A stretch of 64,000 nt of DNA from NCBI GenBank assembly GCA_003973265.1, contig QNYZ01000058.1, positions 8,079 through 72,078 on the forward strand, given 5' to 3'. The notes beneath the pieces were generated by a model that made no database searches, was not told the DNA's origin, and saw nothing but the letters and a program-made list of their open reading frames with translations. The position numbers and the translations under genes are program-made. Below are positions 44,016 through 64,000 of this stretch, piece after piece. Position 1 is the first letter of the stretch. Each line of letters opens with the position of its first letter. The stretch comes from Deltaproteobacteria bacterium. GTDB lineage: Bacteria > Desulfobacterota > Desulfobacteria > Desulfobacterales > QNYZ01.

Positions 44016-44056
44016 TTGACAAGTTACGCCAATTTTAATTACATTATAGCTATAAT
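44016..44056 (+). promoter_or_regulatory. Candidate sigma-70 promoter of had/oah with an overlapping perfect 14-bp palindrome
   Basis: TTGACA (44016-44021), 18 nt, then TACATT (44040-44045). The perfect palindrome ATTATAGCTATAAT (44043-44056) overlaps the -10 region. AGTTACG directly follows the -35. Confidence 0.4.
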
Positions 44057-44165
44057 ATAATTATCATCGGGATATTCGCGGTCTTCTCCTAAACAGGGAA
44101 GGCCCCGGACGGTGGAGACATTTATAAAGCTTATATTGATTGGACAGACAATAAGGAGGGGCTCG

Positions 44166-45269
44166 ATGGCAGCTGTACCTGGAAAAATTATGACATGGCA
44201 GATGGTTCGGCCAACCACCCGGAACAGAGAGACCGGTGAGGTGTTACCGGGTAAACTGGAGAAAAAAGAATTACCGGTACCGGCGCTGAAAGAAGGGGAG
44301 GTGCTTGTGGAGGTGGCCGGCTGCGGGGTGTGCCATACGGACCTGGGATATTTTTATGATGGGGTTCCCACGGTATGTAAACCGCCCCTGACGCTGGGGC
44401 ATGAAATTTCTGGAACCGTGGTGGCCGGTGATGCGGCCTGGATTGGCAAAGAGGTGTTAATCCCGGCCGTGATGCCATGCCGAAAATGTCATCTGTGTAA
44501 AACCGGGCGGGGAAACCGCTGCCTGTCTCAGAAAATGCCGGGCAACAGTATCGGTATTTACGGGGGCTTTTCAAGTCATATTCCCGTTCCCTCGATTGAC
44601 CTTTGCGAGATAAAAAATCGCGGAGATTTTCCGCTTTCCCACCTGGCAGTGGTTGCCGATGCCGCCACGACGCCGTATCAGGCGGCCCGACGCGCCGATC
44701 TTCGTCTCGGTGACCATGTCATCGTCATCGGGGTCGGGGGGGTTGGCCAGTATATGGTCCAGGAAGCCAAAGCCCTGGGCGCGGCCATGGTCATTGCCAT
44801 CGACATTGATCAGGAACGGCTGGATCTGATGAAAAAATACGGTGCCGATGAAGTTATCAATGTGACTGGTAAAAAACCCCGCGATGTGGCCGGCGAAGTC
44901 AAGGCGATCCGCAAAGAGAAGGGGTTGCCCGCCCATGGCTGGAAGATTTTCGAGGCCACCGGATCAAAACCGGGCCAGGAGCTGGCTCTGACGCTGTTAA
45001 GCTTTACCGGTAAATTGATAATTATTGGATTCGGAATGCAGAAAGTTGAATATTCCATCAGCCGCCTGATGGCCTTTGACGCGGAGATTATCGGTACCTG
45101 GGGCTGTCTGCCAGAATACTATTCCCATGTCCTGTCGATGGTCCTTTCCGGAAAAATCGCCCTGTCGCCCTTTGTGCAGACCCGGCCCATGAGCACCATT
45201 GCCGATGTGTTTGAAGAAGCACATACCCAGTCGCCGGACCGGCGCATCATCCTGGAGCCGGACTTTTAA
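44166..45269 (+). CDS. bamQ: Zn-dependent MDR alcohol dehydrogenase, probable 6-hydroxycyclohex-1-ene-1-carbonyl-CoA dehydrogenase
   Basis: Start re-assigned to ATG 44166 (AAGGAGG at 44152-44158), giving 367 aa. It has the zinc ADH motifs GCGVCHTDL and GHEISG and a structural-zinc Cys cluster (CRKCHLCKTGRGNRC). The function is inferred from its position directly upstream of oah. Confidence 0.7.
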   Translation: MAAVPGKIMTWQMVRPTTRNRETGEVLPGKLEKKELPVPALKEGEVLVEVAGCGVCHTDLGYFYDGVPTVCKPPLTLGHEISGTVVAGDAAWIGKEVLIPAVMPCRKCHLCKTGRGNRCLSQKMPGNSIGIYGGFSSHIPVPSIDLCEIKNRGDFPLSHLAVVADAATTPYQAARRADLRLGDHVIVIGVGGVGQYMVQEAKALGAAMVIAIDIDQERLDLMKKYGADEVINVTGKKPRDVAGEVKAIRKEKGLPAHGWKIFEATGSKPGQELALTLLSFTGKLIIIGFGMQKVEYSISRLMAFDAEIIGTWGCLPEYYSHVLSMVLSGKIALSPFVQTRPMSTIADVFEEAHTQSPDRRIILEPDF

Positions 45270-45353
45270 AATGGCTGGCCTGCCGGTCGACTGGCTGATC
45301 GAGCGATCTATTCAACTAAAAAAACGAAACTGAACAACAACAAGGAGACAGAC

Positions 45354-46490
45354 ATGGCTTTAGACTGGATGCCGAGAGATAACGAACCCAAAGATCACGC
45401 CCTGCACCGGGATCCCCACTGGACCACGGAAGCCCCCGGGGTGGTATACGAAAAAAAACCCTTGACCGATCCCAGGGGGAATGTGGTGGAAGGGCTGTAT
45501 ACCGCCTGGATCCGCCTGAATAATCCCAAGCAGTATAATTCATACACAACCGATATGGTCAAAGGCGTCATTGCCGGGTTTGAAAATGCGTCTCTGGATC
45601 GGAGCGTGGTGGCCGTTGTCTTTACAGGAACCGGACCGTATGCGTTCTGTACCGGTGGTAATACCAGGGAATATTCCGAATATTATTCGAGAAGGCCCGA
45701 GGAATACGGCCAGTACATGGACCTGTTCAACCACATGGTCGATTCGATTCTCTCCTGCCATAAACCAACCATCTGCCGGGTCAACGGCATGCGGATTGCC
45801 GGCGGCCAGGAAATCGGTCTGGCGTGTGATCTGGCTATATCATCCGACCTGGCTGTTTTTGGCCAGGCCGGCCCCCGGCACGGCTCCTCCCCGGCCGGCG
45901 GTTCATCCGACTTTCTGCCCTGGTTTCTCACCATGGAAGATGCCATGTGGAATTGCGTATCCTGTGAAATGTGGTCGGCCTACAAGATGAAGATGAAAGG
46001 CATGATTACCAAGGTGGTCCCGGTGTTGAAAATAGACGGTCAATGGGTGAGAAATCCGACCGTTGAAACGGATAAGTATATCGATAACGGCGAGATTGTT
46101 TATGGCGAATATAAGGCCGGTCAGGCCTTTAAAGATGGTAAGGCACTTCTCAGAGCGCATCAGGCCGATGCCGATTTTGAACTGCTGGATAAAGAAGTTG
46201 ATAAAATAATCTGGAAATTTGCCAACCTTTTTCCCGGGTGCCTGGTCAAATCCATCGAGGATGTCCGTCAGAAAAAGAAATTTTTCTGGGATACCATGAA
46301 AAACGATCACCGGCACTGGCTGGCGGCCAACATGTCCAGCGAGGCGTTCCTGGGATTTGGTGCGTTTAATACCAAGAAAATCACCGGTCAGGATACCATC
46401 GATTTTATCAAGTTCCGCCAGAATGTGGCTGATGCCAGGGACTGGGATATGGACATGTTTGCCGAAGTGATGGGAAAACCAGAAGATTGA
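45354..46490 (+). CDS. bamA: 6-oxocyclohex-1-ene-1-carbonyl-CoA hydrolase (ring-opening enoyl-CoA hydratase family)
   Basis: 378-aa extended crotonase-fold protein (VVFTGTGPYAFCTGGN, GGQEIGLACDLAI). Size, the long C-terminal extension and its neighbours (had, bamB-I) fit Oah/BamA. Confidence 0.8.
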   Translation: MALDWMPRDNEPKDHALHRDPHWTTEAPGVVYEKKPLTDPRGNVVEGLYTAWIRLNNPKQYNSYTTDMVKGVIAGFENASLDRSVVAVVFTGTGPYAFCTGGNTREYSEYYSRRPEEYGQYMDLFNHMVDSILSCHKPTICRVNGMRIAGGQEIGLACDLAISSDLAVFGQAGPRHGSSPAGGSSDFLPWFLTMEDAMWNCVSCEMWSAYKMKMKGMITKVVPVLKIDGQWVRNPTVETDKYIDNGEIVYGEYKAGQAFKDGKALLRAHQADADFELLDKEVDKIIWKFANLFPGCLVKSIEDVRQKKKFFWDTMKNDHRHWLAANMSSEAFLGFGAFNTKKITGQDTIDFIKFRQNVADARDWDMDMFAEVMGKPED

Positions 46491-46569
46491 CGATTGGCGA
46501 TTGAATATTGTTGATTGAGACAGATACGCCGGACGCCGGTTGTTCGTTAAAAATTATAGGAATCATTCG

Positions 46570-47124
46570 ATGCGGTACCCCAAAGAATGCGTTCTGAAGG
46601 AATGCCAGGAGGTCGTCATTCGGCCCCTGGCACGTGATGATGAGCCTTTGCTGCTTCAGTTTTTTAACGAGATCCCCGAAGCAGATCGCTGGTACATGCG
46701 ATACGATGTGACCGATATCGGGGTGATTAAAAAATGGTTCGAGCATATCGACTCGGATACCGTGGATTCGATCATCGCTTTGAGCGGTGATCGAATTGTC
46801 GGCCATGGCAGTCTGCATGTCAGAGGGTTCGGCTCCACCCGGCATGTGGGCCGGTTTCGAATCGTTATTCACCCCGAGTTTCGGTTACAGCGGCTGGGGA
46901 CCTGGCTCACGCTTGACCTGATCCAGCTGGCCATGGACAAGGGCCTCGAGATTTTACGGACGGATCTGGTGGCGGGGATCGAAGATGTGGCCATCGATGC
47001 CGTCCGAAAGCTTGATTTTGTTAAACGTGCCGAGATCAGGGACTATGCCAGGGATCCGGAGGGCAACCACCACGATCTGGTGGTCATGATCAAGCGTCTG
47101 CATCGGGGATGGGGGGATTTTTAA
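46570..47124 (+). CDS. GNAT family acetyltransferase (resembles the GNAT domain of Pat-type protein lysine acetyltransferases)
   Basis: Start re-assigned to ATG 46570. It contains VVIRPLARDDEPLLLQFFNEIP...RWYMRY and the acetyl-CoA-binding segment VIHPEFRLQRLGTWL. Confidence 0.75.
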   Translation: MRYPKECVLKECQEVVIRPLARDDEPLLLQFFNEIPEADRWYMRYDVTDIGVIKKWFEHIDSDTVDSIIALSGDRIVGHGSLHVRGFGSTRHVGRFRIVIHPEFRLQRLGTWLTLDLIQLAMDKGLEILRTDLVAGIEDVAIDAVRKLDFVKRAEIRDYARDPEGNHHDLVVMIKRLHRGWGDF

Positions 47125-47129
47125 TCCAG

Positions 47130-47151
47130 CGTCACGACCTGGCGTTTTTTT
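47130..47151 (+). terminator. Candidate intrinsic terminator after the first GNAT gene
   Basis: CGTCA-CGACC-TGGCG forms a short stem-loop, followed directly by TTTTTTT (47145-47151). Confidence 0.45.
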
Positions 47152-47253: not shown

Positions 47254-47895
47254 ATGAACGTATGTAATTTACCATCCCGGGAAATACCCTGGCCGAATGC
47301 CAACGGTCAGCTCCGGATCCGTTGCGGCTGTCATCCTGAGGAGATCCGGGGATATACCTTTGATGCGCAATTTGGCTCCTATGCGCATTTTCGGTCGTTG
47401 TACACGAAACGGGAAACACTGGAAACGATTGCCGGTCATGACGGTGCCAATGTTGTTTTAGCGCTCACCGATAACAATCATATTATCGGATTCGGCGTCC
47501 TTGATTTCCCCGAACCGAATGAGCGATGGGCCCGGCTGGGCGCCAAGCGGATGATGGAAGTCAAGGCCATTGAGGTCTGCCGGGATTTTCGTGCGGCGCG
47601 TGTGGCCAGCGGTATTCTGGAGATGCTGCTCCGGCATCCGCAATTGGAAAAAATGATCGTGTATATGGTCGGGTATTCATGGACCTGGGACCTCGACGGT
47701 ACGGGAAAGACGCCGCAGGCATACCGCAATATTTTGCTGCGTCTGTTTGCGCGTCACGGCTTTGTGGAAATGCAGACCAACGAACCCAATATCTGCCTGA
47801 AGTCGGAAAATCTATTTATGGCCAGGGTCGGAAAAGAAGTACCTGATGATATTATTCAAAAATTCAAGTGGTTACGGTTTGGCGTGAGGCCTTGA
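47254..47895 (+). CDS. AcuA-like GNAT acetyltransferase (acyl-CoA synthetase-acetylating family)
   Basis: 213 aa. By recollection of Bacillus AcuA, the architecture is collinear: ERW...EVKAIEV.RDFR, YSWTWDLDG, TNEPNI, LFMARVGK and KFKWLRF. Confidence 0.6.
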   Translation: MNVCNLPSREIPWPNANGQLRIRCGCHPEEIRGYTFDAQFGSYAHFRSLYTKRETLETIAGHDGANVVLALTDNNHIIGFGVLDFPEPNERWARLGAKRMMEVKAIEVCRDFRAARVASGILEMLLRHPQLEKMIVYMVGYSWTWDLDGTGKTPQAYRNILLRLFARHGFVEMQTNEPNICLKSENLFMARVGKEVPDDIIQKFKWLRFGVRP

Positions 47896-47954: not shown

Positions 47955-47984
47955 TTGACAGCATAGTTACGATATAGCTAAATT
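47955..47984 (+). promoter_or_regulatory. Candidate sigma-70 promoter of bamB with an overlapping imperfect palindrome
   Basis: TTGACA (47955-47960), 18 nt, then TAAATT (47979-47984). ATATAGCTAAAT (47972-47983) is a 12-bp palindrome with one mismatched pair. AGTTACG lies at 47965-47971. Confidence 0.45.
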
Positions 47985-48135: not shown

Positions 48136-50109
48136 ATGAGGTACGCAGAAACAGGGTTTAATTTGGAAATAGATCTGACCCGGGGAAATATTGAAAAGGT
48201 GGCAACGGATCCGAAAGATACCGAGCTTTACCTGGGGGGGCTGGGAACAAACACCAAGATATTATGGGACAGGGTCCCCCCTGAAACAGACGCCTTTTCG
48301 CCCGAGAATCTTTTAATATTCGGGACGGGCCTGTTGTGCGGTACCGCTGCGACCGGTTGTAACCGGACCATTGTTTCCACCATTTCGCCGCAAACCAAAT
48401 TAATGGCATTTTCAATGATGGGCGGATACTGGGCACCGGAATTGAAATATGCCGGTTACGATAAGGTGGTCCTCCGCGGAAAATCACCGGATCTGGTTTA
48501 TATCTGGATCAACAATGATAAGGTCGAAATTCGCGATGCCTCTCATTTAAAGGGCAAGGGCGCGATTGAAACCGCATCGCTTCTGCAAAAGGAGTTAAAA
48601 GAACCCAAAGCCCAGGTAGCCGCCATCGGTCTGGCCGGAGAAAACCGGGTTTTTTATGCGTCCATCGAGCAGGGCCGTTCCAGTGCCAGCCGGGGCGGTA
48701 TTGGCGCGGTAATGGGTGACAAGAATGTCAAGGCGATCGTTGTTCGCGGTACCCAGGATATCAATATTGCCGATCCTGAAAAATTCATGGATCTCTGCTA
48801 TGAAGTAAACGACTATATCAAGTGGCGCCAGGAGAATCCCATTAAAGGGGTCATTCCGATTCTGGCCATCCTGGGCTCGCCCCAGGAAATGGCCATCCAT
48901 GACGAGCAGTGGCATACCGAAAACTTTTCATGGGGCAATGCCCGTACCCGCCGAAAAGGATTCTGGACCGACGAGGTATCTGAAGAGTGGCTGGAAACCA
49001 TGAACAAAGCCCGGACGCGTTTGATCAGTTGTTATAACTGTCCCATTGCCTGTGGGGCGACTATTTCATTGCCGGGGCTGCCGACTTATATGATGAAGTG
49101 TTTTACGAAACTGACCTATACCATGGCGGCCATGTCGAACCTGGAATTTGGTTTAACCATTGCCCAGCGGGCAACAGAGTATGGCGTGGATGGCTATTCC
49201 GCACCGCAGGTGATGGCGTTTGCCCTGGAACTTCTGGAAAACGGGATTTTATCGGATACGGATTTTCCGGACATGCCGGAAGACAATGAGGGCCGGCATT
49301 TCTACCTGCTTGATAAAATTGTCCGCCGGGAAGGGATTGGCGACGTGCTGGCCAATGGTACCCACTGGGCGGCCAAAGAGATCGGTAACGGGGCCGAGGA
49401 ATACGCCCATAATAATATTAAAAAACAGGAACAGCTGCCGCTCAAGCTCTCCATGCTGAACCCGATCTACTTTTTAATGTATTGTACCGGCGAAAAAATA
49501 AACATTACGCAGATTGAGGGTCAATTTCCCCAGGCTGCTTTTCCCAAGAGGGAGCAGCGGGAAAAATTTGTCAAAGACTGGTTCCAGGTTCCGGATGATA
49601 AGTTCAAGCAATACTTTCTGGACTGGGAACCCCGGGGGGAAAATTCGAATCCGTATTACCCCACGGTTGATATGACCTGCGATATTGTCGACTGGCAGGA
49701 GATGATGCACTATATCGATGATGCGCTGGGTATGTGTGCCGGGCTGTCATCCTTTCATATGAAACCCCCCTATCATATTCACAATTTTCCGCAGTTTATA
49801 ACTGCCGGTGCCGGTATTGAGATGAATGAGGAAAAACTGAAACAGGCGGCCAAGCGGTATCGGACGCTGCTCCGGGCATTTAATATCAACCGGGGGATGC
49901 GGCGAAAAGATGAAAAACCGCCCGAAGACCACTGGAAAAAGCGGTTTCCCGAGTTGGAAAAAGAGCTGCTGGATACCTACTACGTATATAAGGGATGGAA
50001 CGAAGAGGGGATTCCAACCAGAGAATCACTGCATGAGCTGGGCCTTGATTACGTGGCTGAAGATTTTATCTCAAGGGGAATTTTGACGGATGAGGGTAAA
50101 TCTTCCTGA
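48136..50109 (+). CDS. bamB: Class II benzoyl-CoA reductase active-site subunit BamB (tungsten-pterin aldehyde:ferredoxin oxidoreductase family)
   Basis: 657-aa AOR-family protein. Its N-terminus MRYAETGFNLEIDLTRGNIEKVATDPKDTELYLGGLGTNTKILWDRVPPE is very close to my recollection of Geobacter BamB. It is followed by bamC-I in canonical order. Confidence 0.9.
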   Translation: MRYAETGFNLEIDLTRGNIEKVATDPKDTELYLGGLGTNTKILWDRVPPETDAFSPENLLIFGTGLLCGTAATGCNRTIVSTISPQTKLMAFSMMGGYWAPELKYAGYDKVVLRGKSPDLVYIWINNDKVEIRDASHLKGKGAIETASLLQKELKEPKAQVAAIGLAGENRVFYASIEQGRSSASRGGIGAVMGDKNVKAIVVRGTQDINIADPEKFMDLCYEVNDYIKWRQENPIKGVIPILAILGSPQEMAIHDEQWHTENFSWGNARTRRKGFWTDEVSEEWLETMNKARTRLISCYNCPIACGATISLPGLPTYMMKCFTKLTYTMAAMSNLEFGLTIAQRATEYGVDGYSAPQVMAFALELLENGILSDTDFPDMPEDNEGRHFYLLDKIVRREGIGDVLANGTHWAAKEIGNGAEEYAHNNIKKQEQLPLKLSMLNPIYFLMYCTGEKINITQIEGQFPQAAFPKREQREKFVKDWFQVPDDKFKQYFLDWEPRGENSNPYYPTVDMTCDIVDWQEMMHYIDDALGMCAGLSSFHMKPPYHIHNFPQFITAGAGIEMNEEKLKQAAKRYRTLLRAFNINRGMRRKDEKPPEDHWKKRFPELEKELLDTYYVYKGWNEEGIPTRESLHELGLDYVAEDFISRGILTDEGKSS

Positions 50110-50160: not shown

Positions 50161-50697
50161 GTGACTGGTGAGAAAAAAAAGAAAATAATCAAGACCATCA
50201 GAATTGATGTGGATAAGTGTCATGGTTGCCGGGCGTGTGAGATGATATGCTCCGCTTTTCATGCCAAACCCAGATACAGCAGCAGTAATCCCGCCAGATC
50301 GCGGATTCGTGTTATCCGTGATCCGCTGGCGGATATTTATGTTCCGGTTTATGCGGGCGAATATACTGTTGCCGAATGTGCCGGCCGGGACAAGTATACC
50401 ATCAATGGTAAAGAATACTCCGAGTGCGCCTTTTGCCGGGCTTCCTGCCCGTCAAGAGCCGACTTTAAAGAACCCGATTCCGGTCTGCCGCTGAAATGTG
50501 ATATGTGCGAGGGCGAAGATGAACCGTTGTGCGTCAAATGGTGCACCGTTGATGCGCTCGTTGTTGAAGAAAGAGAAGAAGAAGTGGAGGAAGAGATCGA
50601 ACAGGAAGAACTGGAGGTCGGTCTGGAGGAATTGGCCAGTAAATATGGAATGAATACGATCATGGATGCCATTTCGCGATTATCCAAGAAGGACTGA
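50161..50697 (+). CDS. bamC: BamC, poly-[4Fe-4S] ferredoxin subunit
   Basis: GTG start with AAGGAG upstream. Cys clusters CHGCRACEMIC, CAFCRASCP and CDMC...C, with an acidic C-terminal tail. Confidence 0.85.
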   Translation: MTGEKKKKIIKTIRIDVDKCHGCRACEMICSAFHAKPRYSSSNPARSRIRVIRDPLADIYVPVYAGEYTVAECAGRDKYTINGKEYSECAFCRASCPSRADFKEPDSGLPLKCDMCEGEDEPLCVKWCTVDALVVEEREEEVEEEIEQEELEVGLEELASKYGMNTIMDAISRLSKKD

Positions 50698-50866: not shown

Positions 50867-52018
50867 GTGGAAACAGTTGCTCCCTTCATAGAGGTCGTCG
50901 AAGAGATCAAAGAGGCCGGTGGAGAAATATTTAAGCTATGCTTTCAATGCGGATTGTGCGATGCGGTCTGTCCGTGGAACCGGGTTCGTGATTTCAGCAT
51001 GCGCAAACTTATCCGGGAAGCGGCCTTTGGATTAACCGAGATCGATGGCGAAGATCTCTGGCGCTGCACGACCTGCGGGAACTGTCCGACGCAGTGTCCC
51101 CGGGGGGTCAAGCAGATTGATGTGGCGGTTGCGCTGCGCCGTGTGGCAACCGAATACGAAGTTTTTCCTGCATCTGTCAAGTCGGCCAGAACAGCGCGGG
51201 CCAGCTTGATTTCCGAGGGGAACCCCCTTCAGGGAGAGCGGAAAAACCGCTCCCAATGGGCGAAGGATCAATCGATAAAACCGTTCAGCGAAGAGATGGA
51301 GGCGTTGTATTTTGTCGGGTGTTACTTAAGCTATGATCCCAGGATGAAAAAAGTGGCGGTGGCCACCGCCTCCATTCTGAAAAAAGCAGGTGTGGAATTC
51401 GGGATACTGGGCGATCGGGAAAGCTGCTGCGGAGAAAGCATCCGCAAGGCAGGCAGCGAAGAAGTATTTAAAACCCTGGCTAAGGATAACATCAAGACGT
51501 TTATCGAAAAAGGGGTCAAAAAGATCATCGTCTCTTCTCCCCATTGTTACCATACTTTTAAAAACGAATATCCTGAATTCATGGTCCACTTTGAAGTCGT
51601 TCACATGAACCAGTATCTAATGGACCTCATCGAAGACGGGCGGCTTGAATTGAAAGGGGAGTTTTCAAAAAGAGTCACCTACCACGATCCATGTTACCTG
51701 GGACGGCACAACGGCATTTACGATGAGCCCCGAAATATTTTGAACCGGGTGCCGGGACTGGAACTGGTTGAAATGGAAAATTTCAGGAAGAACAGCCTCT
51801 GCTGCGGGGGTGGCGGGGGGCGGATCTGGATGGATACCCCCAAGGAAGAACGGTTTTCCGATATCCGGCTGGAACAGGCCAAAGCGGCTGGCGCAAGCAT
51901 CCTCGCGACTTCCTGCCCATATTGTATTACCAACTTTGAGGAGAGCCGGTTGAATCTGGAATATGAAGACATTGTGGAAATTAAGGATATCACCGAGATC
52001 ATCAATGATATGCTTTAG
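50867..52018 (+). CDS. bamD: BamD, HdrD-like Fe-S protein with two CCG domains
   Basis: [12 protein letters not shown] and [12 protein letters not shown] ferredoxin motifs, plus two CCG-type cysteine-rich domains (CCGES..., DPCYLGR, CCGGGGG, SCPYC). GTG start with AAGGAGA upstream. Confidence 0.85.
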
Positions 52019-55000: not shown

Positions 55001-55224
55001 CCTGCACTTATGAAGCCATCGAATTTGTTGATACGCCCGGGGGCAAGAAAGCCTGGGTCAACCCGATTCTCTGCAAGGGTGATGGGGTCTGCAATGCCAA
55101 GTGTCCGACCAATGCCATTGTTTTAAAACATTTTACCAATGACGCCCTTTTCGGCCAGATTGATGCAGCCATTACCGCTGAAGATATGATCGAACAGATT
55201 GATGCCGTGGCCGAAAAAGTGTAA
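52087..55224 (+). CDS. bamE: BamE, HdrA-like FAD/Fe-S protein (two HdrA modules plus ferredoxin domains), predicted selenoprotein with an in-frame UGA
   Basis: ORFs 52087-52317 and 52369-55224 are in the same frame, with no other stop between them. The junction reads [30 protein letters not shown], the HdrA CSMCIL motif with TGA at the Cys position. Two GxGxxG FAD sites are present ([20 protein letters not shown]). Confidence 0.85.
52315..52317 (+). other. In-frame UGA read as selenocysteine (BamE)
   Basis: The TGA replaces the conserved Cys of the HdrA motif [10 protein letters not shown] stem-loop CTGGTCG-AGGT-CGGCCGG (52333-52350) starts 16 nt downstream and is a candidate SECIS element. 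Confidence 0.75.
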
Positions 55225-56098: not shown

Positions 56099-56551
56099 AT
56101 GGATATAGATAGAATCGATCAAATTATTGACAGGCACCAGTGCGAGGCCAGTTCTCTTATTCAGATTTTGCTGGATATTCAAAGTGAGAACCATTGGCTT
56201 TCCAAAGAAGCCCTGACGCGGGTGGGCGAGAAATTACAGGTACCATTTACCCGGATACAGCACATTGCGACCTTTTACAAAGCGTTCAGCCTGGTTCCCA
56301 AGGGGCGCCATGAAGTACATATCTGTGTGGGAACGGCCTGTCATGTCCGGGGTGCCACGCGCATTCTCGATACGGTTAAAGATGTGACGGGTATTATGCC
56401 GGGCGAGACGGACATGGATTTGAAGTTCAGCCTGGAGACGGTGAATTGTCTTGGGTGCTGTGCCCTGGGGCCGGTCGTGGAAATTGACGGAAAAGTTCAT
56501 GGCAAGATGTCGCCGGGAGAGACGGCAGATGTATTAAAAAACTATGAATAG
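56099..56551 (+). CDS. bamG: BamG, NuoE-like [2Fe-2S] thioredoxin-fold ferredoxin
   Basis: NuoE/HoxE pattern with Cys ligands in ICVGTACHVRG and VNCLGCCALGP. Confidence 0.85.
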   Translation: MDIDRIDQIIDRHQCEASSLIQILLDIQSENHWLSKEALTRVGEKLQVPFTRIQHIATFYKAFSLVPKGRHEVHICVGTACHVRGATRILDTVKDVTGIMPGETDMDLKFSLETVNCLGCCALGPVVEIDGKVHGKMSPGETADVLKNYE

Positions 56552-56569: not shown

Positions 56570-58492
56570 ATGTCGCAGATAAATTCGCCCGCTGAATTAG
56601 ACGCTTTCAGAAAGGGCATCCTGGCAAAAAGAGATCCTGAAACGCCTTGCATTTCAATTTGTGCGGGTGCCGGATGTATTGCTTCCGGCGCCGATGAAGT
56701 GATCGCCGCATTTGAGGCCGAGATCGGTGCACAAGGGCTGGCGGCGAACGTGGTTACCAAAGGGACGGGATGTCCCGGTTTTTGCGAAAGAGGGCCGATC
56801 GTGGTGATTTATCCCGAGGAGATCTGCTACCTCGGCGTCACCGCTGAAGATGTTCCTGAAATTATAACGGAGACCATCAAAGAGAAGAGGGTGGTTGATC
56901 GCCTGCTTTTTGAAGATCCGGCTACTGGCGAAAAGGCGGTCCATGAGTCGGATATCCCCTTTTACCGGAATCAGGAACGAAACGTTATCTGCAACAATAT
57001 CAAGATCGATTCCAAAAGCATTGACGATTATCTGGCCCTCGATGGCTATTCGGCCCTGGCCAAGGCGCTCACCGGGATGACCGATGAAGAAGTTTTGGAA
57101 GAAGTCAAAAAATCCAATCTTAGAGGGCGGGGTGGTGCCGGGTTTCCCGCAGGGATTAAGTGGGAGGGATCCCGCAACGCGGCTGAGAAGACAAAATACG
57201 TGATCGTCAACGCCGATGAGGGTGACCCGGGGGCCTTTATGGATCGGGCCTTGCTGGAGGGCAATCCGCATTCTATTCTTGAGGGGCTGATTATCGGCGG
57301 CTATGCCATTGGCGCTCATGAGGGCTATATCTATGTACGGCAGGAGTATCCCCTGGCCGTCGAGAATATCACCCTTGCCATCGAGCAGGCAGGCGCATAT
57401 GGTTTGATTGGGAAAAATATTCTTGGGTCCGGATTTGATTTCAAAGTGATCGTGCACCAGGGGGCCGGCGCATTTGTCTGCGGTGAATCGACTGCCTTGA
57501 TGACGGCCCTGGAGGGGCGGGTGGGTGAACCCCGGCCCAAATACGTTCGCTCCAATATCAAGGGGTTGTGGAATCGCCCCAGCGTTCTGAATAATGTGGA
57601 GACCTGGGCCAACGTTCCGTTGATCATCAATAAAGGCGCCGACTGGTTTACCCAAATCGGAACCGAGGGAAGCAAGGGGACAAAGATTTTTTCCCTGGTC
57701 GGCAAGATCAACAACACCGGCCTGGTTGAAGTTCCCATGGGCATCAGCCTGAAAGATATTATTTTCAAGATCGGCGGCGGGATTCCCAATGGCAAGGCTT
57801 TTAAGGCGGTGCAGACCGGTGGCCCCTCGGGCGGATGCATCCCGGCCGACCAGTTGGATTTGGAAGTCGGCTTTGATGAACTGACCCGGGCCGGTTCCAT
57901 GATGGGGTCGGGTGGTATGATCGTCATGGATGAAGATACCTGTATGGTGGATGTGGCCCGGTACTTCATCAATTTTCTGACCGATGAATCGTGCGGTAAG
58001 TGTGTTCCCTGCCGGGAAGGTCTGCGGCAGATGCATAAGATTTTGACCGATATCACAGAGGGAAACGGGAAAGAAGGCGATATTGAGCGGCTGGAGCAGT
58101 TGGCGGAAGCGGCCCGGGAGGCATCCTTGTGTGCGCTGGGTAAGAGCGCGCCAAACCCGTTTTTCAGTACCCTGCGCTATTTCAGAGATGAATACGAGGC
58201 GCATATCAGGGAAAAAAGATGTCCGGCCCTGTCCTGCAAGGAACTGATTGCCTACTATATTGATCCGGATAAGTGCAGAGCCTGTATGATCTGCGCAAGG
58301 AAATGTCCGGTCAATGCGATTGAGGGCGGAAAGAAAACAATCCATGTGGTTGACCAGGAAAAATGTACCCGTTGCGGTACCTGTTTTGAAGTGTGCCCCG
58401 CGCGATTTAATGCGGTAACAAAAATATCCGGTCAGCCGGTTCCGGCGCCGATTCCCGTTAAAGAGCGAACGATCAGCAGAAAGAGTAAATAA
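56570..58492 (+). CDS. bamH: BamH, NuoF-like NAD(H)/FMN/Fe-S subunit
   Basis: N-terminal [2Fe-2S] thioredoxin-like domain, NuoF core (GRGGAGFPAGIKW, NADEGDPGAF, ESCGKCVPCREG) and two C-terminal 4Fe-4S motifs (CRACMICARKCP, CTRCGTCFEVCP). Confidence 0.9.
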   Translation: MSQINSPAELDAFRKGILAKRDPETPCISICAGAGCIASGADEVIAAFEAEIGAQGLAANVVTKGTGCPGFCERGPIVVIYPEEICYLGVTAEDVPEIITETIKEKRVVDRLLFEDPATGEKAVHESDIPFYRNQERNVICNNIKIDSKSIDDYLALDGYSALAKALTGMTDEEVLEEVKKSNLRGRGGAGFPAGIKWEGSRNAAEKTKYVIVNADEGDPGAFMDRALLEGNPHSILEGLIIGGYAIGAHEGYIYVRQEYPLAVENITLAIEQAGAYGLIGKNILGSGFDFKVIVHQGAGAFVCGESTALMTALEGRVGEPRPKYVRSNIKGLWNRPSVLNNVETWANVPLIINKGADWFTQIGTEGSKGTKIFSLVGKINNTGLVEVPMGISLKDIIFKIGGGIPNGKAFKAVQTGGPSGGCIPADQLDLEVGFDELTRAGSMMGSGGMIVMDEDTCMVDVARYFINFLTDESCGKCVPCREGLRQMHKILTDITEGNGKEGDIERLEQLAEAAREASLCALGKSAPNPFFSTLRYFRDEYEAHIREKRCPALSCKELIAYYIDPDKCRACMICARKCPVNAIEGGKKTIHVVDQEKCTRCGTCFEVCPARFNAVTKISGQPVPAPIPVKERTISRKSK

Positions 58493-58496
58493 AAAA

Positions 58497-59090
58497 ATGA
58501 GTGATTTTCATTTAGAGATTGACGGAAACAAGGTGGGCGTAAAAGAGGGAGAGACAATCCTTGAGGCCGCCCAGCAGGCGGGGATATACATCCCTACCCT
58601 TTGTCACCACGAAAAGCTGGAACCGTTTGGCGGCTGCCGGATGTGCATCGTAGAAGTAGAAAGTCGCGGACGCACAAAGCTGGTTGTCTCCTGCGTGTAC
58701 CCGGCCGAAGCCGGTCTGGTCGTCAGAACCCGGTCAGAAAAGATCGATCGCATCCGTAAAACGATTCTGGAGCTGTTAATGGCCCATGCGCCGGATTCGC
58801 CGCCGTTGGTGGCGCTGGCTAAGGAGTATGGTGCCAATAAAGACCAGTTTGAAAAAGAGTCTTCATTCTGCATTCATTGCGGGTTGTGTGTCAGGTATTG
58901 TGAAGAGGTTAAGAAGAATTATGCAGTCGGATTTGTTGACCGGGGCGTACGCAAAGAGATCAGTTTCATTCCGGAGATTGCGGCCAAAGTGTGCAATGAC
59001 TGCAAGGAATGCTTTCCTCTTTGCCCCACATCGTATCTCCAGGCAACATTTGTTTTAACAGAATCTCTTGCGTTTCCAACGGTGCCATAA
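58497..59090 (+). CDS. bamI: BamI, NuoG N-terminal-like [2Fe-2S]/[4Fe-4S] protein
   Basis: Plant-type 2Fe-2S motif (CHHEKLEPFGGCRMC) followed by CIHCGLCVRYC and CNDCKECFPLCP. Confidence 0.85.
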   Translation: MSDFHLEIDGNKVGVKEGETILEAAQQAGIYIPTLCHHEKLEPFGGCRMCIVEVESRGRTKLVVSCVYPAEAGLVVRTRSEKIDRIRKTILELLMAHAPDSPPLVALAKEYGANKDQFEKESSFCIHCGLCVRYCEEVKKNYAVGFVDRGVRKEISFIPEIAAKVCNDCKECFPLCPTSYLQATFVLTESLAFPTVP

Positions 59091-59128: not shown

Positions 59129-59941
59129 TTGAGTGCAGGAAAGAATACTGAATCTTGTCAGGTATATCGGTGCAAAAAGGGCGCCTGCCGGCCGCATGCA
59201 CTTGATTTGATCGGGGAAGAACCGCTTCTGATCCGGATTGATGAAAAGCCCTATTCCGTGGTGATGCGAACCCCGGGAGAAGAACTGTTTCATGCCGCCG
59301 GATTCTGCCTGGGAGAGGGGATTGCGGACACCCCGGATGATTTTGCCGCCATCGGGTATTGTAAAGATCTCGATCCGAATGTGATTGATGTCCGGCTGAC
59401 GCCCAAACGGCGTGAACAGATACCGGATCTTCTTAAACGGCGGGGCTTTGTCAGCCAGACCAGTTGCGGTATCTGCGGCAAGGAGATGGTCAAGGATCTG
59501 TACCAGATATTGACACCGGCAGCAGATGGCTACCAGGTGAAGATTGGCCGGATTTTTGACTGTATCGAAAAGCTGTCCGACAATCAGAGCTACTATCAGA
59601 CTACCCGGGGGTCTCACGCGGCCATTATTTTTAACGACCAGCTGGAAATGATTTCTTTTGCCGAGGATGTCGGTCGGCATAACGCGCTGGATAAAACCAT
59701 CGGCAAGGCGTTCATGGCCCGGAAGTTATCTGCGGCCAGTATACTGGTCATCACCTCCCGGCTCAGTTATGAACTGGTTCAACGCGCCGCCCGGGCGCAC
59801 CTGCCGATGATGATCAGTAATTCGCGTCCCACCGCACTGGCCGCTGAGATGGGGCGGGCGCTGAACATGACCCTGGCTTTTCCGGCCAAAAAATCTGAAT
59901 TGATCATCGTTTGCGGCCAGGATCGCATCGTGATAGAATAA
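59129..59941 (+). CDS. fdhD: FdhD-like sulfurtransferase (formate dehydrogenase accessory family); start uncertain
   Basis: LIGEEPLLIRIDEKPYSVVMRTPGEELFHAAGFCLGEGI, the Cys loop SQTSCGICG, and GRHNALDK. The listed start 59009 would overlap bamI by 82 nt. TTG 59129 with AGGGA upstream gives about 270 aa, the usual FdhD length. Confidence 0.75.
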   Translation: MSAGKNTESCQVYRCKKGACRPHALDLIGEEPLLIRIDEKPYSVVMRTPGEELFHAAGFCLGEGIADTPDDFAAIGYCKDLDPNVIDVRLTPKRREQIPDLLKRRGFVSQTSCGICGKEMVKDLYQILTPAADGYQVKIGRIFDCIEKLSDNQSYYQTTRGSHAAIIFNDQLEMISFAEDVGRHNALDKTIGKAFMARKLSAASILVITSRLSYELVQRAARAHLPMMISNSRPTALAAEMGRALNMTLAFPAKKSELIIVCGQDRIVIE

Positions 59942-59973: not shown

Positions 59974-60756
59974 GTGAAGATTCTCACAACTGTTAAAAAA
60001 GTAGTGGATGTTGAACTGAACATGCACGTCAAGGATGGCGCGCTGGTTGAAGACGGGATGCAATATGTCACCAACGCCTGGGATGAAAATGCGGTGGAAA
60101 CGGCGTCCCAGTTGAAAGAAAACAACGGGGCGGAAACCACACTGGTGAGCATCGGCGGCGGAGATAACACCGATATTATCCGCCGATGCTATGCCATGGG
60201 TATTGAAAACGGCATCCATGTCGATGATCCGGCACTGGAAAAGGCCGATTCATCAATCTATGCGAAAGTACTGCAAAAAGTGTATGAAGCGGGCGACTAC
60301 GACCTTGTCATTACCGGCAAGCAGGCCCAGGATACGGACAGCGGCCAGACGGGCATTATCCTGGCCGAATATCTGGGACTGCCGTGTGTCAGCAATGTCA
60401 TCGCCCTGGAAGTGATCGATGACCAGCATATCAAAGTGTCCAGGTCCGGGGATACCGGAACCGAGATCGTTGAATTAACGCTACCGGCCGTTATTTCGGT
60501 CGATGTCAGCATCAATGAACCGCGGCTGCCCCAGATGCGGGGCATCATGATGGCTAAGAAAAAGAAGATTACGGAGATGGATCTGGCGGCCCTGGGTACA
60601 TCGGCCGATGAAGTCGGCGCCGATGCTCCCAAATCGGAAATTATCGAATTTATGGCATCCCAGTCGCGCCAGGCCGGGCAGAAATTTGAAGGCGATGCTG
60701 CTGAAATTACCGCCAAAGTGGTCGATCTCCTGGCCAACGAAGCCAAGGTTATCTAG
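59974..60756 (+). CDS. etfB: Electron transfer flavoprotein beta subunit
   Basis: GTG start with AGGAGGA upstream. MKILTTVKKVVD N-terminus, with LVITGKQAQDTDSGQTG and EPRLPQMRGIMMAKKK typical of EtfB. Confidence 0.9.
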   Translation: MKILTTVKKVVDVELNMHVKDGALVEDGMQYVTNAWDENAVETASQLKENNGAETTLVSIGGGDNTDIIRRCYAMGIENGIHVDDPALEKADSSIYAKVLQKVYEAGDYDLVITGKQAQDTDSGQTGIILAEYLGLPCVSNVIALEVIDDQHIKVSRSGDTGTEIVELTLPAVISVDVSINEPRLPQMRGIMMAKKKKITEMDLAALGTSADEVGADAPKSEIIEFMASQSRQAGQKFEGDAAEITAKVVDLLANEAKVI

Positions 60757-60819
60757 CTTGCGAAGATTATTTGAGATCAGTATTTGACACGAAAACGATT
60801 TAGATAAGGAAAACATATC

Positions 60820-61785
60820 ATGGCTAAAGTACTCGTCGTTGCGGAAATCAAGCAGGGTGTGCTGAAAAGCAGTACGCCCGAACTGTTATCAAAAGCAAGA
60901 GCCATTGGTGCTTCGACCGCCGTGGTGGCCATTGGAAGCAATATTGAATCGCTTGTCCCTGAACTGGCAGGTGCCGGATCTGACACCCAGTATATTGCCG
61001 ATGATCCCGGCCTGGAGCTGTTTTCGGCCGGACCGGTTGCGGCATGCGTGGTGGATGCGGCCAGGCAATTCGGGGCCAGTCTGATCTGGTTCGGTTTTTC
61101 TGAAAGCAGTAAAGCGGTGGCGCCGCGGGTGGCCGCCCAGCTGGATGCGGCCTGTGCCACCGAAATCAACGATATCTCGCTCAATGGAGATCAGATCGAG
61201 GTCATCCGGCCCGCCATCACCAATAAGGTGATGCAGCGTGTTAAGGTCAATACTGAGAAACTGGTAGCAGTTGTCAGAGCCGGTGCATTTGAGGCGACGG
61301 AAGGGATCTCCGGAACGGAGAATGTCGTTAAACTCTCCCCGCCCGAGATGGATTTAAAAGCATTGGTCAGGGAAATATTAACGGATGCGAGCGGAGAGAT
61401 TGACCTGGCCGATGCCGATATTGTTGTTTCAGTCGGGAGAGGCGCCAAAGACCAGGCCGGCATTGACCTGGTAAGGGGGCTGGCCGATGATTTACACGCC
61501 GGCTTCGGCTCTTCCCGTGCCATGGTTGACGGCGGGTTCATGGCGCACAACAAGCAGGTGGGCCAGACCGGGAAAATTGTTGCCCCGACCTTGTATATGG
61601 CCATCGGCATCTCGGGGGCCATTCAGCATCTGGCCGGGATGAGCGGTTCAAAGGTGATCCTGGCGGTGAATAAAGATCCCGAAGCACCGATCTTTAACGT
61701 AGCGGATTATGGCATTGTCGGTGACCTCTTCGAGGTCGTACCGATCCTGCAGGAAGAGATCCGTAAAATTAAAGCTAAGCAATGA
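60820..61785 (+). CDS. etfA: Electron transfer flavoprotein alpha subunit
   Basis: C-terminal FAD-binding signature VSVGRGA...SRAMVDGGF...QVGQTGKIVAPTLYMAIGISGAIQHLAGM. Confidence 0.9.
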   Translation: MAKVLVVAEIKQGVLKSSTPELLSKARAIGASTAVVAIGSNIESLVPELAGAGSDTQYIADDPGLELFSAGPVAACVVDAARQFGASLIWFGFSESSKAVAPRVAAQLDAACATEINDISLNGDQIEVIRPAITNKVMQRVKVNTEKLVAVVRAGAFEATEGISGTENVVKLSPPEMDLKALVREILTDASGEIDLADADIVVSVGRGAKDQAGIDLVRGLADDLHAGFGSSRAMVDGGFMAHNKQVGQTGKIVAPTLYMAIGISGAIQHLAGMSGSKVILAVNKDPEAPIFNVADYGIVGDLFEVVPILQEEIRKIKAKQ

Positions 61786-61814
61786 GACTTAAAAAACAAT
61801 GCTGGTACGGCTGC

Positions 61815-61841
61815 GGGCTGTCAACAAATCCTTGACAGCCC
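61815..61841 (+). terminator. Perfect 10-bp stem-loop after etfA (possible terminator or attenuator)
   Basis: GGGCTGTCAA-CAAATCC-TTGACAGCCC, followed by GTTCTCCTT. The U-tract is weak, so function as a terminator is uncertain. Confidence 0.35.
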
Positions 61842-61947
61842 GTTCTCCTTACGGTAGGGGGAAGCGGCAATTGGAGCCGACAGGTAGCGTGTCCGCATAT
61901 GACGGTCATATGAGTACGCATTTAAAGCTAAAAAAGGTGGGGTTGCT

Positions 61948-64000
61948 GTGAATCCTCTTCTGATGTCCCTTCTTCTTATTATTGCCCTGGTGGTGTTCGG
62001 ACGAACCATGTATACCCGGATCCGGTTGCTGATGGCGCTGGAACCGGCCGATCGATTCGATCAGATCACCCGGCGTTTAAAAAGTGTGGCGGTTTTTGCC
62101 CTGGGACAAAAGCGCCTGGTGGGAAGAAAAAAAGAACGCCTGTCCGGCGTGATGCATGCATTTATCTTCTGGGGCTTTTGCGTGCTGCTCATCCGCAGCC
62201 TGAATATCTATGGTGAAGCCTTTGTCAGAGGCTTTCATCTGCCACTGCTCGGGGATCATTCGCTGCTGGGCTACCTGTATGTTTTTTTGAAAGATATCGT
62301 CGAGGGCATTGTTTTATTGATGGTGATCCTGGCCCTGTACCGCAGGGCGGTAATCAAACCCAAAAGGCTCCACAATTCATGGGAGGCGTATCTGGTCCTC
62401 GGTCTGATCGGGGTATTGATGATTTCCGATCTATTGGTCGACGGAGCCCGTTACAATCTCATCTCACTTTACAACAACCCCGGGCATCTGGATTTTTTCA
62501 ACAATCCCCGGTTTGGGTCCGAATTTAACTGGACACCGATTTCCGTACTGGCGGGGAAACTAATTTCGCCGCTGGGGGCCGGTGCCAACCGGGTAATCAT
62601 GACGATGATGTTCTGGCTGCACATCATCACCCAGTTGACTTTTCTAAATATCCTCCCACTGGGCAAACATTTTCATGTCATCACTGCGCTGCCCAATGTG
62701 TTCTTTAAAAGCCTGGACTATCCCCACGAAAAAACAAAACTTCTCGACCTGGAAGATGAATCGGTCTGGGAAGATGAGTCGCTGGGTATCAACCATATTC
62801 ACCAGCTGAACTGGAAACAGGGCCTCGACCTTTACACCTGTACCGAGTGTGGCCGCTGCAAGGAAGTATGCCCTACCTACACCACCGACAAGCCTTTGAA
62901 CCTGTTTGATTTTAATATGCAGTTGAAAGAGGAGCTGCTGGAGAATACGGATAACCTGATTAAAAGAGCAGCACTGGCCAACACCCTCCCGTCGGACGGT
63001 GATGCTGAAAATACGGAAAAAATAAAAGCGGAAATGGCCGGGCTCAACAGCCAGAAACAGCTGGTGGGGGATGTGATCGCCGAAGACACCCTCTGGGCGT
63101 GTACGACCTGCCGGGCCTGTGAAGAAGTCTGTCCGGTAACGATCGAGCATGTACCCCGCATTGTGGGCATGCGTCAGGGACAGACCCTGATGGCGGGCGT
63201 CTATCCTGATGAACTGAATGTGGCCCTCAAGGGTCTTGAACGAAACGGCAACCCCTGGGGAATCGGCTATGACAAGCGTGCTGACTGGGCCGAAGGCCTC
63301 GGTGTCAAGATGATGGCCGATGATGCCGATGTCGACTACCTGCTGTGGGTGGGATGCGCCGGTTCCTTTGACGACCGTGCCAAAAAGGTGTCAACCAGTC
63401 TGGTCAAAATCCTGCAGAAAGCCGAGGTTGATTTTGCCATCCTGGGCGTTGAGGAAAAATGTACCGGTGACTTCGCCCGGCGGGTCGGCAATGAAATGAT
63501 GTATCAGATGATGGCCCAGGAAAATATTGAAACCCTGAACAGTTACCAGGTTAAAAAAATTATCACGGCCTGCCCGCATTGCCTCAACACCCTGAAGCAT
63601 GAATACCCCCAAATGGGCGGAAACTACGAGGTCGTCCACCATACCGAGTTCATTTACCAATTGGTAAAGACCGGTAAGATCACCTTGAATTCGTCGCTGG
63701 GCGGAGCGCTGACCTACCATGATCCCTGTTATCTGGGGCGCTACAACGCCGTTTATGATCAACCCCGCTCAATTTTGCAGTCGATTTCGAAGAACGGCCT
63801 GACGGAGCTGGATCGGCATGGCCCGGAAAGTTTCTGCTGCGGTGCCGGTGGGGGCCGAATGTGGATGGAAGAAACCATTGGTAAAAGAATCAATGAAGAA
63901 CGCGCTGGAGAGATTGTTTCAAAGCAGGTGGCGAATGTGGCGGTAGGCTGCCCGTTCTGCCTGACGATGATTGAAGACGGCATGAAAGAGTTAGGTAAAG
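61948..64000 (+). CDS. Membrane-anchored Fe-S oxidoreductase (N-terminal multi-TM domain, 2x[4Fe-4S], two CCG domains; HdrD/DsrK/GlpC-like, Etf-associated type), 3'-truncated by the window edge
   Basis: This gene is not in the supplied ORF track. My manual translation from GTG 61948 (AAGGTGG upstream; alternative ATG 61963) is open to position 64000. It shows hydrophobic helices, then CTECGRCKEVCP and CTTCRACEEVCP, then CCG-domain motifs (WVGCAG, ACPHCLNTL, DPCYLGR, FCCGAGGG, VGCPFCL). Confidence 0.85.
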   Translation, partial: MNPLLMSLLLIIALVVFGRTMYTRIRLLMALEPADRFDQITRRLKSVAVFALGQKRLVGRKKERLSGVMHAFIFWGFCVLLIRSLNIYGEAFVRGFHLPLLGDHSLLGYLYVFLKDIVEGIVLLMVILALYRRAVIKPKRLHNSWEAYLVLGLIGVLMISDLLVDGARYNLISLYNNPGHLDFFNNPRFGSEFNWTPISVLAGKLISPLGAGANRVIMTMMFWLHIITQLTFLNILPLGKHFHVITALPNVFFKSLDYPHEKTKLLDLEDESVWEDESLGINHIHQLNWKQGLDLYTCTECGRCKEVCPTYTTDKPLNLFDFNMQLKEELLENTDNLIKRAALANTLPSDGDAENTEKIKAEMAGLNSQKQLVGDVIAEDTLWACTTCRACEEVCPVTIEHVPRIVGMRQGQTLMAGVYPDELNVALKGLERNGNPWGIGYDKRADWAEGLGVKMMADDADVDYLLWVGCAGSFDDRAKKVSTSLVKILQKAEVDFAILGVEEKCTGDFARRVGNEMMYQMMAQENIETLNSYQVKKIITACPHCLNTLKHEYPQMGGNYEVVHHTEFIYQLVKTGKITLNSSLGGALTYHDPCYLGRYNAVYDQPRSILQSISKNGLTELDRHGPESFCCGAGGGRMWMEETIGKRINEERAGEIVSKQVANVAVGCPFCLTMIEDGMKELGK

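Follow-up and report, generated by a model that had tools for sequence, protein, structure and literature searches.

A class II benzoyl-CoA reductase locus with ring-cleavage genes and a putative electron transfer flavoprotein outlet in an uncultured Desulfobacterales bacterium

The DNA analysed here, referred to as the window, is a stretch of 64,000 nucleotides from an uncultured Desulfobacterales bacterium (assembly GCA_003973265.1, contig QNYZ01000058.1, positions 8,079 to 72,078 of the forward strand). From position 44166 to the end of the window, the + strand carries closely spaced genes that are free of frameshifts. Eighteen genes were counted, of which 16 are itemised below. This block of about 20 kb very probably encodes a complete class II (ATP-independent, W/Se/Fe-S/flavin) benzoyl-CoA reductase, BamBCDEFGHI, along with the ring-cleavage enzymes Had and Oah. 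It would also encode an electron outlet made up of an electron transfer flavoprotein (ETF), EtfBA, and a membrane ETF:menaquinone oxidoreductase (EMO). In strict anaerobes, the key enzyme for degrading aromatic compounds is class II benzoyl-CoA reductase, which operates at the lowest redox potential known in biology. The features of the block are as follows.

44016..44045, + strand: sigma-70-like promoter match (TTGACA-18-TACATT, 10/12 matches) upstream of had; a consensus match only.
44166..45269, + strand: had (bamQ), zinc-dependent alcohol dehydrogenase family (ADH_N and ADH_zinc_N; TIGR03201); start as given by the gene caller, with an alternative GTG at 44112.
45354..46490, + strand: oah (bamA), ring-opening 6-oxocyclohex-1-ene-1-carbonyl-CoA hydrolase of the crotonase family (ECH_1; TIGR03200).
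46570..47124, + strand: small GNAT acetyltransferase of 184 amino acids, gene 1 of a conserved pair (Acetyltransf_1, E = 1.8e-7).
47128-47146: terminator-like hairpin after the small GNAT gene.
47254..47895, + strand: homologue of AcuA-type protein lysine acetyltransferases, 213 amino acids (match to PDB 9g7f_C).
47955..47984, + strand: sigma-70-like promoter match (TTGACA-18-TAAATT, 10/12 matches) upstream of bamB; a consensus match only.
48136..50109, + strand: bamB, tungsten-bis-pyranopterin catalytic subunit (AFOR_N and AFOR_C; match to PDB 4z3w_A).
50161..50697, + strand: bamC, poly-[4Fe-4S] ferredoxin subunit (4z3w_E, E = 3.4e-83, full length).
50867..52018, + strand: bamD, HdrD/HdrBC-like, with two cubane motifs and two CCG domains (two CCG and Fer4_8).
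52087..55224, + strand: bamE, fused double HdrA-like flavoprotein of 1045 amino acids (HdrA2 and HdrA models in three stretches).
55277..56044, + strand: bamF, MvhD/VhuD-like [2Fe-2S] adaptor with a C-terminal winged helix, 255 amino acids (FlpD, E = 3.9e-37; HTH_5).
56099..56551, + strand: bamG, NuoE/HydC-like [2Fe-2S] subunit (2Fe-2S_thioredx, E = 1e-48).
56570..58492, + strand: bamH, NuoF/HydB-like FMN/NAD(H) subunit (Complex1_51K, NADH_4Fe-4S, two Fer4, 2Fe-2S_thioredx).
58497..59090, + strand: bamI, Fe-S subunit like the N-terminal part of NuoG and HoxU, 197 amino acids (Fer2_4, Fer4_7, Fer4_Nqo3; HoxU and NuoG N-terminal models).
59129..59941, + strand: fdhD-type sulfurtransferase/chaperone of 270 amino acids, TTG start (FdhD-NarQ, E = 5.6e-56).
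59974..60756, + strand: etfB, ETF beta subunit, bamO-like (ETF domain, E = 2.4e-40).
60820..61785, + strand: etfA, ETF alpha subunit, bamP-like (ETF and ETF_alpha; PDB ETF alpha subunits at about E = 1e-52).
61948..64000, + strand, cut by the window end: EMO/EtfD-type membrane ETF:menaquinone oxidoreductase, GTG start (match to PDB 9ojn_A).

An earlier note on this DNA had listed these genes in this order, and all of them were found intact on the + strand with the open reading frame (ORF) list, Pfam, and NCBIfam. Some of its descriptions needed adjustment. The first of its two GNATs is a GNAT, and the second does not stand as a plain one, having no significant Pfam match (E = 0.11), and is instead of the AcuA type. 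The NuoE/F/G-like reading of bamGHI is correct, with bamI corresponding only to the N-terminal, HoxU-like part of NuoG. No gene starts at 44016, which had been given as the start of the locus; the best sigma-70-like promoter match lies there, upstream of had. BamH has an N-terminal thioredoxin-like [2Fe-2S] domain, a NuoF core, and a C-terminal 2x[4Fe-4S] ferredoxin domain, which is the published layout. The window holds 684 of the 702 codons of the EMO gene, and its full length of 702 amino acids was obtained from a sister contig of the same metagenome (L083).

The identity of the reductase can be judged best from BamB. Its alignment to the crystal structure of Geobacter metallireducens BamB (PDB 4z3w_A) spans 651 residues with no gap, at 80% identity and 1251 bits, versus at most 222 bits to any AOR, FOR, or WOR structure. 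A generic aldehyde oxidoreductase, an assignment that the earlier note had named beforehand as a refutation, was rejected on these scores, the protein being closer to BamB. In the alignment to 4z3w, the tungsten ligand Cys322 and the Zn/proton-relay site formed by Glu251, His255, Glu257, and His260 are all kept. These residues are described features of BamB, which binds a non-nucleotide bis-pyranopterin and whose sixth tungsten ligand is now taken to be water (PMC12096430). The names Had and Oah, also given in the earlier note, were borne out by curated equivalog models. Had scored 489 bits with TIGR03201 (cut-off 338.65) and Oah scored 566.6 bits with TIGR03200 (cut-off 464.45). Judged by sequence, these are two of the three enzymes that lead from the dienoyl-CoA product to 3-hydroxypimelyl-CoA.

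It is conceivable that a BamB-type reductase acts on another aryl-CoA, such as methyl-, hydroxy-, or halo-benzoyl-CoA or a partly reduced naphthoyl-CoA, and not on benzoyl-CoA. Desulfobacterales do carry paralogous bam clusters, in which BamB is 55-57% identical to the one here. Of two BamB paralogues in D. multivorans, which differ in their expression patterns, BamB2 (79% identity to Geobacter BamB) was given the role of true benzoyl-CoA enzyme, and the other (64%) was not (PMC5109826). However, the BamB of the window is of the 80%-identity type and is assigned from its sequence to the same class as BamB2. All of its named active-site residues are kept, and the flanking Had and Oah reach equivalog level for the unsubstituted pathway. 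A substrate other than benzoyl-CoA is thus considered highly improbable, and benzoyl-CoA is preferred.

In the paralogous clusters (L245, L272, L274, L276, L282, L285, and L301), BamB corresponds in type to D. multivorans BamB1, and the clusters include bamC, bamD, bamE, bamF, and bamH genes of their own as well as an fdhD gene.

The remaining subunits were compared by tblastn to three Geobacteraceae references, Geotalea sp. SG265 (BamB 94% identical to Geobacter BamB), Geobacter argillaceus, and Geomonas propionica. G. metallireducens GS-15 was not among the 80 loci retrieved. All three reference loci have the order oah-bamBCDEFGHI. BamB to BamI are colinear with these clusters and match from end to end with 56-81% identity (BamC to BamI, 56-78%), and the match of BamF includes the C-terminal winged-helix part. 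The architecture proposed in the earlier note, that of the Geobacter complex, is therefore present with all eight subunits in the same order and at full length. BamD has 9 of the 10 CCG cysteines. Its first CCG domain reads S-P-H-C, a Cys-to-Ser change that is also present in the aligned Geobacteraceae BamDs. This change appears to fit the modified distal D4 cluster of a cryo-EM preprint, in which a terminal sulfur ligand is described (bioRxiv 10.64898/2026.04.10.717634).

A variant cluster, B-C-D-E-F-H(short), without bamG and bamI was seen at L034, L038, L055, L143, L152, and L153, and at many loci of fdhD relatives (L254, L259, and L263, among others). At L143, L152, and L153, the BamH match covers the C-terminal ferredoxin part only and overlaps the end of bamF; the other variant loci were recognised by gene order only. 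From this gene content, the NADH-input module seems to be missing or replaced in the variant clusters. They retain fdhD.

A plain ORF list truncates bamE and bamF because each is read through one in-frame TGA codon. The bamE gene begins with GTG at 52087 after AGGAG, and its TGA (52315-52317) falls at residue 77 within the HdrA motif ..NDCSM-U-ILSPK... The bamF gene begins with ATG at 55277, and its TGA (55331-55333) falls at residue 19 in ..FVCHW-U-VYGAAD... Relatives encode residue 77 of BamE with TGA in 53 of 62 cases and with TGT or TGC in 9 of 62. For residue 19 of BamF, the codon is TGA in 50 of 52 relatives and TGT in 2 of 52. This alternation between TGA and cysteine codons is consistent with the usual signature of a selenocysteine (Sec)/Cys site, and it lends support at both predicted sites to the selenium claim of the earlier note. 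Residue 19 is the exact position of Sec19 in G. metallireducens BamF, which was described along with the winged helix by cryo-EM (bioRxiv 10.64898/2026.04.10.717634). A hairpin is located 18-36 nt after the bamE TGA.

The membrane Fe-S protein at the end of the block is assigned to the EMO/EtfD family of ETF:menaquinone oxidoreductases. It matches the EMO of M. smegmatis (PDB 9ojn_A) with E = 1.7e-127 over residues 6-338 and 373-695, which takes in the membrane and Fe-S domains. The architecture of EMO consists of a NarI-like five-helix membrane domain, three haem-ligand histidines, an HdrC-like part with two cubane motifs, and an HdrB-like part with two CCG motifs (bioRxiv 10.64898/2026.08.18.745454). 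In the protein here, there are four strong hydrophobic segments; a fifth at about 215-245 is below the hydropathy threshold and is placed by the 9ojn alignment. His70, His225, and His241/243 are conserved in the same alignment. Two CX2CX2CX3C motifs (298-308 and 385-395) and two CCG domains (470-545 and 594-671) are present. The etfB and etfA genes are directly upstream, and the trio is common to many loci.

The first CCG motif of this EMO is Cys-Thr-Gly, not Cys-Cys-Gly (63460-63468, residues 505-507; L083 11129-13237). The M. smegmatis enzyme (MsEMO, PDB 9ojn) shares the substitution, which gives a linear [3Fe-4S] cluster there, whereas the Syntrophus aciditrophicus enzyme (SaEMO) has a [4Fe-5S] variant. 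SaEMO and MsEMO are like the protein here in being single chains of about 700 amino acids, with a NarI-like membrane domain with conserved histidines, two cubane motifs, and two CCG domains, encoded beside etfAB. They differ in being beside beta-oxidation genes, whereas the EMO gene here is beside a benzoyl-CoA reductase. The EMO gene is separated from etfA by 163 nt, and a G+C-rich inverted repeat, gctgcgggctgtcaa...ttgacagcccgt, is found in this gap at 61800-61850 (+). The repeat could work as a partial terminator, or as a processing site by which the ratio of ETF to EMO is set.

The position of these genes can possibly indicate their role. In Geobacter cells, ETF docks on BamD, as seen by in-cell tomography, and the complex reduces ETF in vitro (Appel et al., bioRxiv 10.64898/2026.04.10.717634). 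The same authors propose that a benzoate-induced EMO re-oxidises ETF and passes the electrons to menaquinone. Because ETF is the acceptor of BamD in that 2026 preprint, the etfBA-EMO genes beside bamI are read here as the high-potential outlet of the reductase. The presence of an Etf/membrane Fe-S module had been pointed out in the earlier note, and the ETF/EMO outlet would now account for its role. Either etfB (with etfA and EMO) after bamI or fdhD, or etfBA-EMO before bamB, was found in dozens of species-level genomes in three arrangements. In at least 20 genomes, etfB follows fdhD or bamI. EtfA has equally good PDB matches to bifurcating and non-bifurcating ETFs.

Alternatively, etfBA-EMO could be unrelated to the reductase and serve only the acyl-CoA dehydrogenases of the lower pathway (glutaryl-, cyclohexanoyl-, and fatty acyl-CoA), its position being due to pathway clustering. 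EMO and ETF do form a general route from beta-oxidation to menaquinone (bioRxiv 10.64898/2026.08.18.745454; PMC5109826), and other pairs of etf and Fe-S oxidoreductase genes in D. multivorans adjoin acyl-CoA dehydrogenase genes (PMC5109826). However, no acyl-CoA dehydrogenase gene was found in or beside the block, and the module is tied to bamB-I in three gene orders in many genomes. The tomography and in vitro assays likewise place ETF at BamD, where the complex reduces it (bioRxiv 10.64898/2026.04.10.717634). A module unconnected with the reductase is therefore regarded as improbable, and the outlet role is preferred. The two roles are compatible with each other.

Reductase activity, the electron path, and the use of aromatic substrates by this organism can be proposed by analogy. 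The steps are taken from the G. metallireducens enzyme and applied by orthology. Electrons would enter BamGH from two donors in a HydBC-type confurcation, with reduced ferredoxin using the C-terminal clusters of BamH and NADH using the FMN of that subunit. From there, BamI and then the Sec-containing adaptor BamF would relay them to the FAD of BamE, where bifurcation would take place. The low-potential electron would go by way of BamC to the tungsten-pyranopterin of BamB, where benzoyl-CoA would be reduced to cyclohexa-1,5-diene-1-carbonyl-CoA. The high-potential electron would leave by BamD, the output site, and go to ETF, EMO, and menaquinone. Dch, encoded elsewhere, would hydrate the diene, Had would oxidise the product, and Oah would open the ring to give 3-hydroxypimelyl-CoA. 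The mechanism mentioned in the earlier note, ring reduction driven by electron bifurcation, is updated to a confurcation of ferredoxin and NADH at BamGH, followed by a bifurcation at BamE to BamB and to BamD/ETF (bioRxiv 10.64898/2026.04.10.717634).

Several points count against this reading of the locus. Neither dch nor a gene for benzoate-CoA ligase was found in the window or in the 10 kb downstream, so the pathway is not self-contained here. No selA, selB, selC, or selD and no tRNA-Sec were found in the window (ARAGORN was used for tRNA-Sec). When the 60 nt 3' of each TGA were folded in search of a selenocysteine insertion sequence, no stability above that of shuffled sequences was seen (z = 0.25 and 1.36). 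This folding was uninformative, and the Sec calls thus rest on codon conservation. The model in which ETF is the acceptor comes from one 2026 preprint and a different organism. Lastly, the benzoate-induced ETF genes of G. metallireducens, bamOP, adjoin had and dch and not bamB-I.

The locus can be compared to that of G. metallireducens, which encodes the complex Bam[(BC)2DEFGHI]2 (Gmet_2088-2080 for bamA-I; PDB 4z3w-4z40) with the same eight subunits, order, and sizes. BamB (80%), BamC (about 70%), Cys322, the Zn/proton-relay residues, Sec in BamE and BamF, the winged helix, and the Cys-to-Ser change of BamD are shared with G. metallireducens or the Geobacteraceae. In both, oah is upstream in the same orientation, with two acetyltransferase genes between oah and bamB here. 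The locus here also has had upstream of oah, and fdhD, etfBA, and the EMO gene directly after bamI. In G. metallireducens, bamOP, had (bamQ), and dch (bamR) are found in a separate cluster (Gmet_2153-2150) about 65 genes away, whereas there is no dch here.

Metagenome ERZ23498834 contains the identical sequence on a scaffold of 47 kb. Among species-level genomes, the nearest is that of an uncultured Desulfobacterales, the metagenome-assembled genome CAZNZW01, with a BamB identity of 96% and the same gene order. Two genome scans with different queries returned 515 and at least 584 stretches that encode BamB relatives. The order bamBCDEFGHI-fdhD-etfB(-etfA-EMO) is present in at least 17 species-level genomes. 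The order had-oah-GNAT-AcuA-bamB is present in the closest relatives (L003, L005, L006, and L007) and in L173, L182, L198, L201, and L205, and with a divergent oah in L204, L211, and L217. The bam clusters of other Desulfobacterales (relatives of Desulfobacula, Desulfosarcina, and Desulfococcus) differ only in that all of the modules form one uninterrupted block here. As here, etf genes are inside the bam cluster of D. multivorans (PMC5109826) and fdhD is inside that of ORM2a (PMC13101534). The packed arrangement had seemed noteworthy in the earlier note; the synteny comparison shows that it recurs in many Desulfobacterales. Since it recurs in these relatives and is split in G. metallireducens, the packed order is typical of Desulfobacterales and not a peculiarity of the window.

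FdhD shares with E. coli FdhD (4pde) the CxxC loop (CGICG here, CGVCG in E. coli) and a second motif (GRHNALDK and GRHVALDK). It barely passes TIGR00129 (141.8, cut-off 140.9) and is below the cut-off of NF001943 (179, cut-off 269). The neighbourhoods of its 61 closest relatives (58-90% identity) were examined, 52 of which had enough upstream sequence. In 41 of the 52, fdhD comes directly after the gene for a Bam subunit or EMO (BamH in 20, BamI in 14, EMO in 5, and BamF in 2). These 41 loci include clusters around BamB paralogues as well as clusters without bamG and bamI. In the benzene-degrading ORM2a, a gene for FdhD separates bamD from bamE, and the proteome includes its product (PMC13101534). 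A survey suggests that FdhD is perhaps needed for another clade of Cys-ligated tungsten oxidoreductases. The FdhD here looks like a bam-dedicated subfamily that, among the relatives compared, occurs almost only inside bam clusters, and this is possibly a new point. Judged by gene linkage, the most likely role of the FdhD-type protein is that of a maturation factor dedicated to the complex. Tentatively, the Desulfobacterales class II reductase could then have a ninth dedicated component, an FdhD-type sulfurtransferase that matures a sulfur-bearing site. This site might be the tungsten cofactor of BamB, with its Cys ligand, or else the additional terminal sulfide on the modified non-cubane cluster of BamD and perhaps of EMO, for which an extra sulfide is likewise described (bioRxiv 10.64898/2026.08.18.745454).

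The AcuA-like protein of 213 amino acids matches AcuA over residues 15-210 (PDB 9g7f_C, E = 1.1e-28) and also 2q04_A (E = 4e-24), and its homologues carry the JGI name AcuA. Linkage of the GNAT/AcuA-like pair was examined in 80 species-level genomes, which gave 67 loci with enough flank. The small GNAT gene is directly upstream of the AcuA-like gene in 57 of the 67. An Oah homologue, either co-directional or divergent, is encoded within 3.5 kb upstream of the pair in 46 of them. Full-length homology is shared with B. subtilis AcuA, the lysine acetyltransferase of acetyl-CoA synthetase (PDB 9g7f). That protein differs in its acuABC context, whereas the gene here is paired with a second, small GNAT gene and linked to oah and had. 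No acuB, acuC, or CoA ligase gene was found beside the AcuA-like gene here or in L158-L160. A duplication was considered for the origin of the pair and rejected, similarity between the two genes being undetectable (E = 0.44).

Control of aryl-CoA ligases by protein acylation is an established idea in anaerobic benzoate catabolism. In Rhodopseudomonas palustris, for example, Pat and KatA control the benzoate-CoA ligase BadA. By gene linkage and analogy to AcuA, the pair here is most likely an acyl-CoA-dependent regulator by protein acylation. It may be an acyl-CoA-sensing switch that is tied to the ring-opening genes, which is a weaker proposal than the one made for FdhD. A literature search found no paper that ties AcuA to benzoyl-CoA clusters, and the oah linkage may be new.

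In L158-L160 (Desulfosarcina and relatives; about 1200-8640), the pair is divergent to a second cluster. This cluster has an oah-like gene (377 amino acids), a short-chain dehydrogenase/reductase, a thiolase, a ChsH2-like OB-fold protein, a 256-amino-acid crotonase, a zinc-dependent alcohol dehydrogenase (about 47% identity), and a POR/KGOR-like gene. Where an oah homologue is divergent as in this type of arrangement, its identity is about 65%. Possibly, the second cluster encodes a paralogous pathway of ring cleavage whose substrate is another CoA ester, either alicyclic or aromatic.

It is also possible, though doubtful, that fdhD is an ordinary maturation gene for formate dehydrogenase that is beside bamI by chance, with the GNAT/AcuA-like genes likewise being passengers. 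FdhD acts on the bis-molybdopterin guanine dinucleotide of formate dehydrogenases, and BamB has a non-nucleotide bis-pyranopterin (PMC12096430). No fdhD adjoins bamI in the three Geobacteraceae loci that were examined, and the GNAT beside bamQ in ORM2a was undetected in the proteome (PMC13101534). Against chance, however, stands the recurrence of fdhD directly after bamH, bamI, bamF, or the EMO gene in several architectures, as does the detection of FdhD in the ORM2a proteome. The linkage of the GNAT/AcuA-like pair to oah homologues in both orientations also counts against passengers. No formate dehydrogenase gene was found in the window or in the 10 kb downstream; no such screen was made of the flanks of related fdhD loci.

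The upstream neighbour of the block is a divergent radical-SAM gene, and the downstream neighbour is lpxR. Products encoded elsewhere in the window or within the following 10 kb are cytochrome bd, SbcCD, HflX, DnaB, ribosomal proteins, a sigma factor, SecA, ClpSA, PanB, LpxR, ZnuABC, OmpA, and others. As the earlier note had stated, dch (bamR) and bamY are not in the window; the other genes at positions 1-44000, like those in the 10 kb past the window end, are housekeeping or unrelated. No crotonase besides Oah and no AMP-forming ligase were found in the remaining window or 10 kb beyond. An Rfam scan of the whole window returned only a tRNA-Arg and no cofactor riboswitch. A mobile island was considered and rejected; there is no break in GC content, and the flanks carry housekeeping genes.

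Some other genes in the window were noted. The radical-SAM protein (42617-43897, -; 426 amino acids), divergent from had, has a weak Pfam match and no NCBIfam model. The two closest genomes (L003 and L005) have its gene at the corresponding position, with 62-64% identity. Genes for a cytochrome bd oxidase, cydAB, are present at 1613-4283 (-) with a DUF4492 gene and an Rrf2-type regulator (upstream, L088) in this presumed strict anaerobe, and they probably serve in oxygen defence. One ORF (20085-20867, -) combines a Fur-family regulator domain with a C-terminal FeoA domain, an unusual fusion. A tyrosine recombinase (17891-18787, -; Phage_integrase with a SAM-like N-terminal domain) adjoins the rpsF-rpsR-rplI-dnaB block. 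Because the GC content shows no break, it is more likely of the XerC/D type than a sign of a mobile element.

The locus brings no new principle. It is an ordinary good example of a system that is already well understood. The linkage of its modules in many uncultured sulfate-reducer genomes gives independent genomic support to the 2026 proposal of an ETF/EMO high-potential outlet. The locus also draws attention to a bam-specific FdhD and to an oah-linked GNAT/AcuA pair as accessory functions. The Geobacter model could not reveal these because its cluster is without them. The block can serve as a compact marker in environmental genomics for benzoyl-CoA-type aromatic degradation in Desulfobacterales.

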